This document shows, in pieces, positions 45,752-49,847 of a stretch of DNA of 64,000 bases. Under the pieces are notes generated by a model, which saw nothing but the letters and a program-made list of their open reading frames with translations, had not been told where the DNA came from and did no database searches. How positions within the stretch are numbered: position 1 is the stretch's first letter; every line of letters starts with the position of its first letter. Origin of the DNA: Dictyostelium discoideum (lineage: Eukaryota); assembly GCA_000004695.1 (NCBI GenBank), contig CM000151.3, positions 4,768,001-4,832,000 of the forward strand, in the 5' to 3' direction. The position numbers and the translations under genes were made by a program.

Positions 45752-45884
45752 TTAACATGAAACTGTTCTATAAATATCCTCGTGCCAAACAAATACATTA
45801 CGTCCACAAGTCATTAACTCTGGTGAAGTTGTACAATTTGTTGGATAGTCTTCGCAATACTATGAAAAATATTAAAAAAAATAT

Positions 45885-45915
<31 letters not shown>

Positions 45916-46016
45916 TTTTAACTATTATCGTTTTTTAAAATTAATTTCAATAAAACTTACCAATACTGATGCTGAAATTAAAAAAATAATTAAATTGGAA
46001 ATTTAAATCGTGTGTT

Positions 46017-46060
<44 letters not shown>

Positions 46061-46729
46061 ATTTAATACATATGTTCACCTTGATCACAATAAAATTTTG
46101 AAAAAGAATTATTTCCTAAAAAAAAAAAAAAAGAATTATTAATTAGTAATCAATTTAAAAAAAAAAAAAAATAATAATAATAATGATAATAATAATAAAT
46201 AATTTTATTACCTAAATGGAAAACAGTATTATTTGTATAAAAATAATACCATTGAGGATTACCTAAACAATTTGGATCAGTAAATTGAGAATATTTATAT
46301 GCATATTCTGGCATACTTGTTGGATTTTCTTTAATTGTAACCAAAACATAATTATATGGTTGATAATACATGTAACCAATATCTGGAACTTTGTAACACT
46401 CATTAGGAAAAAAAAGTTACATCATCTTCTGAATTTGAATTTGAACATGTAATATCAGACCCTTTATATAACTGAAATGTTGCATTTGCATTATCTTTTC
46501 CAAGTGTTTTATAATTATTTAAAGTTGATGTAAAATCACCAATAGCAAAACATTCACCAACAACAAATGCATAACAAACTCCATTTTCACCTTTTGATAC
46601 CGTACATTCATAATCTTCGTATGGTGTCATCTCTACATAATAAACTGATTCAACAACCAATATTGTTGAAAAACAACAAATTATAATAAATAAACAAATA
46701 AAATAAATTAAATTATTATTATTAAACAT
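45752..46729 (-). CDS. Secreted Cys-containing protein, paralog 1 of a local two-member family. Multi-exon model: exon 1 from 46729, extra intron ~46105..46190, an 11-nt micro-exon CATCAGTATTG at ~45934..45944, last exon 45752..~45861. Carries a +1 frameshift in the T8 run at ~46384..46391
   Basis: The N-terminus 'MFNNNNLIYFICLFIIICCFSTILVVESVYYVEMTPYEDYECTVSKGENGVCYAFVVGECFAIG' is 70-80% identical to the gene at 48957..49847. The central part 'PNECYKVPDIGYMYYQPYNYVLVTIKENPTSMPEYAYKYSQFTDPNCLGNPQWYYFYTNNTVFHLG' is likewise 70-80% identical but sits in a shifted frame after 'SEDDVTFF'. The C-terminal exon reads 'YCEDYPTNCTTSPELMTCGRNVFVWHEDIYRTVSC*'. Confidence 0.5.
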
Positions 46730-47158
46730 TTTAAAAAACTAAATGTGAAAATAAAAAAAAAATAAAAAAAAAAAAAAACCAAAATAAACCTTATAAAAAA
46801 GTAAATTAATTATGAATAAAAATATAAAATATTAATTTTTTGAATATTTAGATCCTAATACTTTAATGACCCCATCTGATTTTGAGTCAATCTCTTGGTG
46901 ACATTGATCACATTTTTCGTATTTTGTTTTAGTTATGTTTTGAATACATGTTGCACACCATGGTTTACTTTCATATTGATAAAATTCATCTATTTTTTTT
47001 TTTAAAAAAAAAAAAAATTAGTTATCTTTATGAAAATCTTGACGTCATAAAACAAAATAAAATAAAATATCCAAAAATATCTTTTTTTTTTTTTTTTTTT
47101 TAAAAAATAATTTTAAAACTTTATAAAATATCTAAAAATATCTTTTTTTTTTTTTTTT

Positions 47159-48451
47159 TTAAAAAGTTAAAACACTATTTTTTAATCTTGATTTTTCAGA
47201 TTCAAATACTAATTTATGAGAAGCAAGAGTATCATCAGGACCAGATAAAATTTGAGTTGGATCATTTTCAGAGACTGCATAAATAAATGATCTCATGAGG
47301 TAATAATCTGAAGCACCATGATTTGACATTTTTGTATTTTGAATTATTTGTGGTTTAAAGATTTCTTTATCACCAAATCTAAAGTCATCATAGACGATGT
47401 CATAACCATTGTTACATTCTAATTGACCCATTGAACCAAAGATTCTAATTTTACGTACACACATACTCTCTGTGAATGCAACCATACTAAAAGAGGAGAG
47501 AGCACCACCTTCAAATTCTAAATTCACAACTTGCTGATCGACTACGTCATTATCACTCTCATAGACACATCTACCATAGGGACCGTTTTCAATTGCCAAT
47601 TTAACATTCTCTTTTGTTGGCTCTCTATCTGGTACTAGTACATCCCTTTTCCAAGGATAATGCTCTAAATAAATCTTTTGAGCACTGTATGGACACGTTT
47701 TGCTAATTGCGCATTCTACACATCTCTTTGCACTACCAGCATTGGTAGGTTTTTTCTCCTTTTTAAAGTATGTCAAGCTACCAAATGACGATACTTTCTT
47801 GCACTTTTTTCCGCCCATAAAATAATGAATCAAGTCAAGATCATGACACGACTTTGCCAATAGCATGAATGTCGAGGTTGAGAGTTTTCTCCAATTGCCT
47901 CTGACATAGGAATGGGCGTGGTGGTAGTACCCCACAGGCTCCAAATGCTGGATGTTTAGCACCTCCCCTATCAATCCACTGTCTATCAATTGCTTGATTT
48001 TAATATTAACCGGTGAGTATCTCAATACGTGGCAAACAGATAACATGACATTGTTGGCTTTGCAAGCTGATGTAATTCTCTCACAATCTTTTTCAGTGAT
48101 AGCTAATGGTTTCTCTACTAATAAATGATACTTTTTATTAGCAAATGCAATTGCAGGCTCACAATGTAATTGGTCGGGTGTTGCTATTAACACTGCATCT
48201 GCGAATTTATCCATTGATATTATGTCTTTCCAATTTTCAAATATCATATCACTTGATAATCCAAATTCATTACCAAGTGTATCTCTTCTAAATTTAATTG
48301 GATCACATACTGCAACAATCTTTAATCTATTTGGTCTTTCAATTGAATATCTACTATAAACATATCCTCTTTGACCACACCCAATTATTATTAATTTTAC
48401 AATTTTATTATTATCAAATTTCTTTTCTTCATTTTCAATATTATCTTCCAT
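47159..48451 (-). CDS. Gfo/Idh/MocA-family NAD(P)-dependent oxidoreductase, 430 aa, single exon
   Basis: N-terminal Rossmann 'KLIIIGCGQRGYVYSRYSIERPNRLKIVAVCDP' and 'AVLIATPDQLHCEPAIAFANKKYHLLVEKPLAITEKDCERI' (the conserved EKP motif) are present. The C-terminal alpha/beta domain is typical of the family. Confidence 0.8.
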   Translation of the reverse strand: MEDNIENEEKKFDNNKIVKLIIIGCGQRGYVYSRYSIERPNRLKIVAVCDPIKFRRDTLGNEFGLSSDMIFENWKDIISMDKFADAVLIATPDQLHCEPAIAFANKKYHLLVEKPLAITEKDCERITSACKANNVMLSVCHVLRYSPVNIKIKQLIDSGLIGEVLNIQHLEPVGYYHHAHSYVRGNWRKLSTSTFMLLAKSCHDLDLIHYFMGGKKCKKVSSFGSLTYFKKEKKPTNAGSAKRCVECAISKTCPYSAQKIYLEHYPWKRDVLVPDREPTKENVKLAIENGPYGRCVYESDNDVVDQQVVNLEFEGGALSSFSMVAFTESMCVRKIRIFGSMGQLECNNGYDIVYDDFRFGDKEIFKPQIIQNTKMSNHGASDYYLMRSFIYAVSENDPTQILSGPDDTLASHKLVFESEKSRLKNSVLTF

Positions 48452-48956
48452 TTTTTTTAATAACTATACTTTTTTTATATATAAATAATTATTAGATGTA
48501 GTGGTAAAAAATTAAAGAAAATAAAAAAAAAAAAAAAAAATTAATTAAAAAAAAAAAAAAAAAAAAAAATTAAAAAAAAAAAATTCAGAGAACGTTCAAA
48601 TAAAAACATTTAAACTTTAATGGGATAAATGAAATAATAAAAAAAAAAATAAAAAAAAGGTATAAAAAAAGGTATTAAAAAAAAAAAAGGTAGCTGTTTA
48701 ATTTAAATTTTTTATTTTGTCAAATCATTTTTGTTTTAAGAATGAATAAATAAAAAAAAAAAAAATATTAAAATATTGAAAAAAAAAAAAAAAAAATCAG
48801 CTCAATTATTTTTTTTTATTTGGAATATATTTTAAATAAAATAATCAAGATTTAACTCTTTTTTTTTTTCATTTATAAATTAAAATTATTTTTCATTTTT
48901 TTATTTTTTTTTTTTTTTTTTGGTTTGTATAAAAAAAAAAAAAATATTAATTATAT

Positions 48957-49847
48957 TTAACATGAATCTAAATAGTAAATGGGTTCTTTCCATGCCCATG
49001 CATTACGACTACATGGTCTGTATATATCTGTAGATGTGCAATTACTTGATGAACCTTCACAATACTATTTATAAAAAAAATATATAAAAATATTAGAATA
49101 ATTTTAAAAAACTAGTTTTCCTGTTTTTTTTTTTTTTTTTTTTTTTTTAAACTTACCAATTCGTATGCTAATTTTTATTTATATTATATTTGAATGAAAC
49201 AAATAAAATTTAATTTTATTAGGATCTATAATTTTAATATTTTATAATTTTTTTTTTTAAAAAAAAAAGGTTAAAATATACTTACGTTCACCTTCATCAC
49301 AATAAAATTTACTGAAATCATTATTACCATAATGGAATGTTGTACCATTTGTATAGAAAAAGTACCATTGGGGATTGGTAGCACAATTGGAATCACTATA
49401 TTGTGTGAATTTAAAAGCATACTGTGGCATGCTTGTTGGATTTTCTACAATTGAAACTAAAACATAATTATATATATTTGGATACATATTATTGTCAGCG
49501 TAATTTGGTGCATTATAACAACTTCCTGATTGATAAGTAACATCATTTACTGGATTAGCTTGTGAACATGTTGAATCTGAATTTTGATATTGATGAAATG
49601 TTGCTGTATTATTACCAACACCGCTAAGTGAAATCACATAATTATTAATTATTGGCGCAAAACTACCAACAGCAAAACATTCACCAACAACAAATGCATA
49701 ACCAACTCCACTTTCACCTTTTGAAACTGTACATGCATCATCTTCATATGGTGTCATCTCTACATAATAAACTGACTCAACAACCAATATTGTCGATCCG
49801 ATTAATAACAATAAACTTAAAAAATAAATAATATTTTCAAATTTCAT
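48957..49847 (-). CDS. Secreted Cys-containing protein, paralog 2 (intact). Model: exon 1 49847..~49300, 11-nt micro-exon CATACGAATTG at ~49155..49165, last exon 48957..~49066
   Basis: Signal peptide 'MKFENIIYFLSLLLLIGSTILVV' is followed by 'ESVYYVEMTPYEDDACTVSKGESGVGYAFVVGECFAVG...NPQWYFFYTNGTTFHYGNNDFSKFYCDEG' and, after two GTAAGT introns, 'YCEGSSSNCTSTDIYRPCSRNAWAWKEPIYYLDSC*'. I do not recognise the family. Confidence 0.55.

Follow-up and report, generated by a model that had tools for sequence, protein, structure and literature searches.

Proteins of the "Bad"/DUF3430 family have been described in Dictyostelium discoideum, where 54 members are known; every one carries a signal peptide, no fewer than 8 conserved Cys and a number of Y/F-x4-C motifs (Guilhen et al. 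2021, PMC7886984). For one member, BadA, it has been reported that overexpression increases bacteriolytic activity at very acidic pH and accelerates the killing of ingested Klebsiella, and that depletion lowers bacteriolytic activity; MiAMP1 (PDB 1C01), a plant antimicrobial peptide folded as a Greek-key beta-barrel, has been proposed as a structural analogue of half of the domain (PMC7886984). Intron turnover has also been studied in Dictyostelium, with 98 putative intron gains for very few of which a source was found (Ma et al. 2015, PMC4683709). The present analysis concerns DDB_G0274987, a gene of the Bad family, its 11-nucleotide (nt) internal exon and its tandem duplicate, which lie in a stretch of 64,000 nt of D. 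discoideum DNA (assembly GCA_000004695.1, contig CM000151.3, positions 4,768,001 to 4,832,000 of the forward strand), referred to as the window.

The contig is chromosome 2, of 8.48 Mb, and the region is AT-rich with short GT-AG introns. Exon 1 of the upstream gene is identical to the AX4 protein Q554P5/P0006, and joining 49847..49282 to 49064..48968 gives an exact copy of the deposited AX4 protein DDB_G0274987 (Q554P5, P0006); the window is therefore the AX4 reference sequence. The upstream copy (48957..49847) is named paralog 2 and the downstream copy (45752..46729) paralog 1. The locus is very probably a tandem pair of duplicates of the family PF11912 with an unrelated Gfo/Idh/MocA gene between them, the upstream copy being functional and using its micro-exon and the downstream copy being a pseudogene. 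Family membership, exon-intron geometry, conservation, lesions and synteny are shown by the analysis; what is said below of splicing in vivo, of secretion and of any bacteriolytic role is predicted. The genes of the locus are the following.

48957..49847, minus strand: paralog 2 (DDB_G0274987), intact PF11912 gene; corrected product of 226 amino acids (aa), the same structure being annotated in orthologs of five species
47159..48451, minus strand: Gfo/Idh/MocA oxidoreductase, intronless, 430 aa, identified by Pfam matches
46835..46990, minus strand: orphan coding fragment resembling a LIM zinc finger, 52 codons to the stop, between the oxidoreductase and paralog 1
45752..46729, minus strand: paralog 1, PF11912 pseudogene with a frameshift and a donor lesion

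The original prediction, which had two minus-strand paralogs bracketing an oxidoreductase, is borne out at these positions; the protein identity of 70-80% given there was an overestimate, the two conceptual products being 60% identical. It had also left the protein family unrecognised, and this family turns out to be already named and partly characterised as PF11912/Bad (PMC7886984). Its reading of the genes as a pair applies to AX4 in part, since both paralogs are recognisable but the downstream one is not intact there.

The 11-nt exon of paralog 2

The exons and introns of paralog 2 are arranged as follows.

49286..49847, minus strand: exon 1, 562 nt; predicted signal peptide and most of the domain, ending in ...FYCDEGE and the first base of a Pro codon
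49168..49285, minus strand: intron A, 118 nt, phase 1, donor GTAAGT; site common to the Heterostelium album and Cavenderia fasciculata orthologs
49157..49167, minus strand: micro-exon CATACGAATTG, 11 nt; with the preceding C it encodes P-Y-E-L
49065..49156, minus strand: intron B, 92 nt, phase 0, donor GTAAGT; not in the H. album and C. fasciculata orthologs
48957..49064, minus strand: last exon (YCEGSSSNC...DSC*), with 4 invariant Cys

Splicing of 49847..49286, 49167..49157 and 49064..48957 yields an open product of 226 aa that ends in ...FYCDEGE-PYEL-YCEGSSSNCTSTDIYRPCSRNAWAWKEPIYYLDSC. Intron A lies in phase 1 and the last exon needs phase 0, and the two are reconciled only by the 11-nt exon, 1 + 11 nt making four codons. 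On both strands of the window the arrangement AG-N11-GTAAGT is present at only two places, 49167..49157 and 45971..45961, against 19 occurrences of GTAAGT alone; these are the 11-nt segments bounded by AG and GTAAGT that had been noticed in both genes (CATACGAATTG in paralog 2, CATCAGTATTG in paralog 1). With the micro-exon included, the product reaches 115.8 bits (E = 3.6e-33) against Pfam PF11912 (CfaA_B_C, formerly DUF3430), for which the curated gathering threshold is 28.6 bits, and its alignment covers profile positions 1-197 of 206.

When deposited proteins were matched to their loci by exact spliced alignment, the 11-nt exon appeared in 9 annotated gene copies, among them paralog 2 of another D. 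discoideum isolate, D. cf. discoideum, D. citrinum and D. firmibasis, and paralog 1 of D. cf. discoideum, D. citrinum and D. dimigraforme. In the 9 copies, from 5 species, the segment stands as an island of conservation, AGCAT...ATTGGTAAGT, within A/T-rich introns that are otherwise unalignable. Variation of the micro-exon among intact copies is synonymous only: paralog 2 has CATACGAATTG or CATATGAATTG (Tyr TAC/TAT), and paralog 1 has CATTGCAATTG or CATTACAATTG (Leu TTG/TTA), encoding P-L-Q-L. A similar signal comes from the last exon, in which, read in the frame set by the micro-exon, the variable sites at codon positions 1/2/3 number 5/9/15 in paralog 2 and 3/1/13 in paralog 1; third positions take 28 of the 46 sites (chi-square ~16, 2 degrees of freedom), and these are second positions in the frame of the reference model.

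The AX4 reference model assumes that the 11-nt segment is intronic and that a single intron of 217 nt is removed, from a GTATAT donor at 49281 to an acceptor at 49065. Such a model has an open frame and corresponds exactly to the deposited P0006/Q554P5, and yet it is very improbable that it is right. Its last exon is read out of frame to a TAG stop at 48968..48970, so that four Cys invariant in 14 family members are replaced; its Pfam score is 98.6 bits, 17 bits below that of the micro-exon model, and its match (profile positions 1-174) ends at the splice point; its donor is chosen 4 nt downstream of a perfect GTAAGT; and it leaves unexplained both the conservation of AG, 11 nt and GTAAGT in 9 copies and the excess of variable third positions when the last exon is read in the other frame. 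From the frame, the completeness of the domain, the orthologs, the substitution pattern and the codon-position bias it is therefore concluded, on comparative grounds, that the 11-nt exon of paralog 2 is real and used, and that DDB_G0274987 is wrongly spliced in the AX4 model. The use of a different acceptor, which the original prediction had named as the case that would speak against the micro-exon, is what this AX4 model assumes, and the comparative evidence argues that the model is wrong.

The paralog 2 mRNA would thus have to include the exon at 49167..49157 (PYEL), and the two models make distinct predictions. The cDNA expected with the micro-exon carries CATACGAATTG between ...GGTGAAC and TATTGTGAAGG; the C-terminus of its product runs FYCDEGEPYELYCEGSSSNC..., and the peptide specific to this model is FYCDEGEPYELYCEGSSSNCTSTDIYRPCSR. 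In the reference model the C-terminus begins NIVKVHQVIAHLQ..., the junction region reads GERNIVK and the protein ends in ...GERNIVKVHQVIAHLQIYTDHVVVMHGHGKNPFTI. Constitutive splicing by intron definition would be expected for the exon, which is flanked by two introns of ~100 nt, both with consensus GTAAGT donors.

It may also be considered that the micro-exon is alternatively spliced, inclusion giving the full protein with 10 Cys and skipping a frame-shifted form with an altered C-terminus, as an on/off switch. The skipped form is open to a stop 11 nt before the normal one, and skipping is more frequent for micro-exons than for ordinary exons in many eukaryotes. Against this, constitutive splicing by intron definition is favoured by the consensus GTAAGT sequence of both donors and by the shortness of the introns (92-118 nt), and the skipped frame shows no sign of coding constraint; alternative splicing is accordingly considered unlikely, and a regulated frame switch, by which D. 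discoideum would change over between the full 10-Cys protein and one with a truncated or altered C-terminus, is quite unlikely. If such a switch existed, the locus would join the birth of a micro-exon, a datable intron gain in the sister paralog and reciprocal pseudogenisation in sibling species, and would serve as a compact natural experiment on how introns and exons are born in Amoebozoa.

With constitutive inclusion as the preferred reading, the AX4 reference C-terminus of DDB_G0274987 (Q554P5) is almost certainly wrong through the skipping of the 11-nt exon, to judge from the comparison of orthologs. The exon is not new to databases, being already part of the gene models in newer GenBank assemblies (ACTFI* and RB653 locus tags). 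Within the library of papers searched, there was no mention of DDB_G0274987, nor of micro-exons as a feature of Dictyostelium genes. The main value of the result is a correction of annotation: expressing, tagging or modelling the protein from the reference sequence would lose four structural Cys, and similar micro-exons may be hidden in other members of the 54-gene family and in other Dictyostelium genes.

Origin of the micro-exon and of the extra intron

The orthologs of H. album (PPL_00732, 46% identity) and C. fasciculata (DFA_06716, 43%) have one phase-1 intron each, exactly at the site of intron A, which lies there eight codons past FYC; intron B is absent from both. Since these outgroup orthologs have the upstream intron only, the micro-exon probably arose by insertion of a second intron 11 nt downstream of intron A. 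Both paralogs hold introns A and B, so the micro-exon predates the duplication. Intron A (phase 1) is common to group 1 and group 2 dictyostelids and would be ancient, and intron B, 11 nt downstream, would have been added, or uniquely retained, in the lineage of the D. discoideum clade before the duplication. A more distant member, P0017 (D. cf. discoideum, L008 3001..3740, 40% identity), has no intron at site A and only one in all, of phase 1, which lies 2 nt upstream of site B; this suggests repeated intron turnover in the short FYC...YC linker across the PF11912 family. The proposal that the micro-exon was conserved after duplication thus stands insofar as the exon is older than the duplication and is kept in sister species, and fails for AX4 paralog 1, in which it is not functional.

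Paralog 1 carries an additional intron, the limits of which were set by alignment with orthologs.

46116..46211, minus strand: lineage-specific intron, 96 nt, phase 1 (inside a Gly codon), GTAATA...TTTTAG, with an (ATT)n run

An (ATT)n intron gained by paralog 1 had been placed at ~46105..46190; the extra intron and its gain after the duplication were upheld, and its exact limits are 46211..46116. D. citrinum and D. cf. discoideum have homologous introns of 84 and 117 nt, respectively, with a common core, ACTAATTAATAAT; no intron breaks the site in paralog 1 of D. dimigraforme (CATTTTGGAGATAAT), in any paralog 2 copy or in the outgroups. In the gene tree of the oxidoreductase, D. dimigraforme falls outside the group of D. 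citrinum, D. cf. discoideum and D. discoideum, so a single recent gain after the duplication is the most parsimonious account of this intron. Alternatively, D. dimigraforme may have lost the intron precisely, the root of the paralog tree being less clear. In AX4 a 13-nt string, AATAATTCTTTTT, is common to the 3' part of the intron and the next exon (46128..46140 and 46101..46113, minus strand), a weak hint that could be the trace of a local duplication at the origin of the intron or a product of chance in AT-rich DNA. As to a source, the core sequence is unique within the 64-kb window.

Decay of paralog 1 and the neighbouring genes

The following features of paralog 1 bear on its state.

46408..46415, minus strand: T8 run, one T more than in orthologs, causing a +1 frameshift; the open reading frame stops at 46403
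46068..46073, minus strand: lost 5' splice site ATATGT (A at 46073); orthologs have GTAGGT or GTATGT, paralog 2 has GTAAGT
45961..45971, minus strand: micro-exon relic CATCAGTATTG (P-S-V-L); intact orthologs have P-L-Q-L; AG and GTAAGT flanks kept
45752..45859, minus strand: last exon (YCEDYPTNC...VSC*), of which isolates ACTFIR and ACTFIW keep only the final ~60 nt

The first base of intron A, at 46073, has changed from G to A in AX4 paralog 1, GT being present in all orthologs, and the changes in the micro-exon are nonsynonymous (PSVL vs PLQL). The T8 run, the ATATGT and the micro-exon are identical in an independent assembly of D. discoideum strain ACTFIT (L009), so these are not reference errors. 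Changes private to AX4 paralog 1 comprise 9 nonsynonymous and 3 synonymous ones, against 3 and 6 in the intact copy of D. cf. discoideum, and include G54C, P70S and P104S at otherwise conserved positions. Isolates ACTFIR and ACTFIW have 47047..45817 replaced by ~75-120 bp (L002 8626..8749, L010 7640..7716), a deletion of ~1.2 kb in which the LIM-like fragment is lost together with most of paralog 1, whose last ~60 coding nt alone are left. Paralog 1 is thus polymorphic among D. discoideum isolates, AX4 and ACTFIT having the frameshifted copy and ACTFIR and ACTFIW the deletion.

A working paralog 1 in AX4 would require that the lesions be sequencing errors or be bypassed, for instance by non-canonical AT-AG splicing. 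The pieces of its reading frame are still recognisable as PF11912 (88.8 bits for the frameshift-corrected conceptual product), the micro-exon retains its flanks, and one annotation pipeline called a 183-aa product there. It is nevertheless extremely unlikely that the gene still works: both lesions recur in the independent assembly, the gene is deleted in two other isolates of the species, the private nonsynonymous changes are in excess and touch conserved residues, no AX4 protein is deposited for paralog 1 or present in its 90% sequence cluster, and splicing cannot rescue the frameshift, no intron-sized GT...AG interval spanning the T8 run. Paralog 1 of the AX4 genome is, on the evidence of its lesions, a decaying pseudogene, which would have become so through the frameshift and the G-to-A donor change in AX4 and ACTFIT and through the 1.2-kb deletion in the two other isolates. 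It is best treated as a pseudogene that is polymorphic among isolates.

Elsewhere paralog 1 is intact, in D. dimigraforme and, when an upstream ATG is used, in D. citrinum. Paralog 2 of D. dimigraforme (L004 ~2530..3441) has GG in place of AG before the micro-exon, ATGTTTTGA at its start and a long (ATT)n expansion in intron A; from its sequence it looks disabled, the reciprocal of the situation in D. discoideum. Some models in the new assemblies are truncated: P0007 (L009 6001..6801) and P0014 (L006 6001..6856) start at the internal Met of MTPY, with an upstream in-frame ATG and predicted signal peptide intact in both, and P0004 (L004 2361..3091) reads into intron A.

The oxidoreductase scores above the Pfam thresholds for PF01408 (71.5 bits, cut-off 24), PF02894 (38.8, 22.9) and PF22725 (44.2, 27), and thus has an N-terminal NAD-binding Rossmann domain and the C-terminal alpha/beta domain. 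The order paralog 2 - oxidoreductase - paralog 1 on one strand is shared by D. discoideum, D. cf. discoideum, D. citrinum and D. dimigraforme. In D. firmibasis (L003 6867..7754) there is paralog 2 only, with an amino-acid transporter gene directly after it, the oxidoreductase and paralog 1 both missing; according to the gene tree the duplication is older than D. firmibasis. The neighbours of the H. album and C. fasciculata orthologs are unrelated. Conservation of the three-gene cluster in other dictyostelids, proposed earlier as a check, therefore extends to the three other Dictyostelium species just named and not to D. firmibasis, H. album or C. fasciculata.

That gene order is kept in four species might point to a functional cluster, in which the oxidoreductase would modify a substrate or cofactor for two co-regulated secreted proteins. 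Synteny alone explains such conservation over evolutionary distances this short, though, and D. firmibasis keeps paralog 2 without the other two genes, the outgroup orthologs have unrelated neighbours, and one paralog is disabled in D. discoideum and the other in D. dimigraforme while the oxidoreductase is still intact. Its N-terminal sequence, moreover, shows no signal peptide, and the named proteins nearest to it come from scattered eukaryotes and are for the most part annotated as uncharacterized. A functional cluster is on these counts highly improbable; the oxidoreductase is, as far as its sequence tells, an ordinary Gfo/Idh/MocA gene, with no evidence of a functional link to the pair.

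The central part of the oxidoreductase gene has a GC content of ~0.40, against 0.27-0.30 in adjacent coding exons, from which horizontal transfer was suspected. Its nearest relatives are from Synstelium (64%), from scallop, crab, ostracod, rotifer and oomycete (~47%) and among unnamed metagenome proteins; with dictyostelid and scattered eukaryotic relatives and no clear bacterial donor, the suspicion was dropped. The LIM-like fragment (DEFYQYESKPWCATC...KCDQCHQEI...) was found only in AX4 and strain ACTFIT, and matches no Pfam family above threshold. The annotation of ACTFIT has a 477-aa oxidoreductase product spanning L009 7307..8926 that takes in this fragment; a splice inferred in the window (donor A|GTGTTT near 47173, acceptor ATAG| before 46992) gives the same length of 477 aa.

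Features of the paralog 2 product and comparison with known systems

Description of the pair as secreted Cys-rich paralogs is supported by the PF11912 match, a hydrophobic N-terminus and 10 Cys. In paralog 2, residues 6-23 are strongly hydrophobic (mean Kyte-Doolittle 2.67), and the mature part would have 201 residues, 37 of them aromatic, with a mass of ~22.7 kDa and a pI of 4.08. An alignment of 14 family sequences shows ten invariant Cys (C39, 57, 94, 110, 155, 183, 193, 200, 209 and 226), four of them in the last exon, and an invariant N167-x-T169 sequon. The product has five Y/F-x4-C motifs (Y34-C39, F52-C57, Y105-C110, Y150-C155 and F178-C183). All homologs found belong to Dictyostelium, Heterostelium or Cavenderia, and sequence searches for more of the 54 D. 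discoideum members returned only this subfamily and one distant paralog (P0017). Among paralog 2 orthologs the ratio of nonsynonymous to synonymous substitution rates (dN/dS) is 0.09-0.27, and paralog 2 is therefore under purifying selection.

AX4 and ACTFIT differ in paralog 2 by only two bases over ~1 kb, both nonsynonymous and both in the last exon: at 48982 AX4 has CCC (Pro) and ACTFIT CAC (His), and at 48967 AX4 has GAT (Asp) and ACTFIT GCT (Ala). ACTFIR and ACTFIW encode His and Ala at these sites too, and the His is kept in every paralog 2 ortholog. The changes of His to Pro and of Ala to Asp in AX4 could be mutations of the laboratory strain or errors of the reference.

Modelling of the domain, which had been suggested as a check, was carried out with AlphaFold2 on a 13-sequence alignment with P0001 as query (96% identical to the spliced product). 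An all-beta model was obtained, but with low confidence (mean predicted local distance difference test, pLDDT, 61; predicted template modelling score, pTM, 0.53), at which no fold assignment is possible. Foldseek with this low-confidence model found no match in the PDB at E<=0.001, and a profile search of PDB sequences gave no credible match. Similarity to MiAMP1, for which the query sequence was checked against 1C01, finds no support at the sequence level (hhalign probability 0.1%), and the model is too poor to exclude the fold.

By analogy with BadA, the paralog 2 product may be regarded as a candidate helper for the lysis of ingested bacteria in acidic phagolysosomes, or extracellularly. 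Several points weigh against the reading of the locus given here. Inclusion of the micro-exon in the mRNA is deduced from comparative evidence and from the gene predictions of other groups, which were perhaps driven by homology. Full function of paralog 2 in the axenic laboratory strain is not guaranteed, given the two private nonsynonymous changes near its C-terminus in AX4. As regards the second-intron origin, with P0017 as the only more distant member examined, introns across the family may have been gained and lost in another order, for example with an older intron B lost in groups 1 and 2. The bacteriolytic role, finally, would be extrapolated from a distant family member, and purified BadA is by itself not lytic (PMC7886984).

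The family is known, the gene is already correct in sister assemblies and one copy is decaying; the original prediction is mostly correct, and what follows from it is chiefly a repair of annotation. The second-intron micro-exon, the recent intron gain and the reciprocal loss of duplicates are tidy examples on a small scale rather than surprises.

When set beside BadA, BadB and BadC, the paralog 2 product is alike in its Pfam domain, its N-terminal signal-like segment, its 10 Cys (at least 8 in the family) and its Y/F-x4-C motifs, and it shares with BadA a similar size, richness in aromatic residues and an acidic pI (4.19 in BadA, 4.08 here). It forms a separate branch of the 54-member family, the comparison having been made with the description of the family and not with the BadA sequence, and the gene structure and micro-exon described here are not discussed in the work on Bad proteins (PMC7886984). 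CfaA, CfaB and CfaC, the counting-factor-associated proteins from which PF11912 takes its present name, fall in this Pfam family too; with paralog 2 they have no more than the family name in common, and nothing found here links that gene to the counting factor or to the control of group size. MiAMP1 is likewise rich in Cys and aromatic residues, the paralog 2 product being predicted to be beta-rich and placed in a putative antimicrobial context, but the comparison of the two gives no profile-sequence signal, and there is no PDB sequence match and, with the low-confidence model, no PDB fold match. The extra intron of paralog 1 resembles the putative gains catalogued earlier in being restricted, here to three close species, and it can be dated within the D. 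discoideum species complex by means of assemblies later than that study (PMC4683709). The micro-exons of animal neurons are regulated and tissue-specific, which the paralog 2 exon is not known to be. It may also be set beside the constitutive micro-exons of eukaryotes that splice by intron definition, which are often missed by gene finders: like them it is very short, has canonical AG/GT flanks, is needed to keep the frame and escaped the first reference annotation, and in its case the origin would be traceable to a second intron that appeared 11 nt from an older one.

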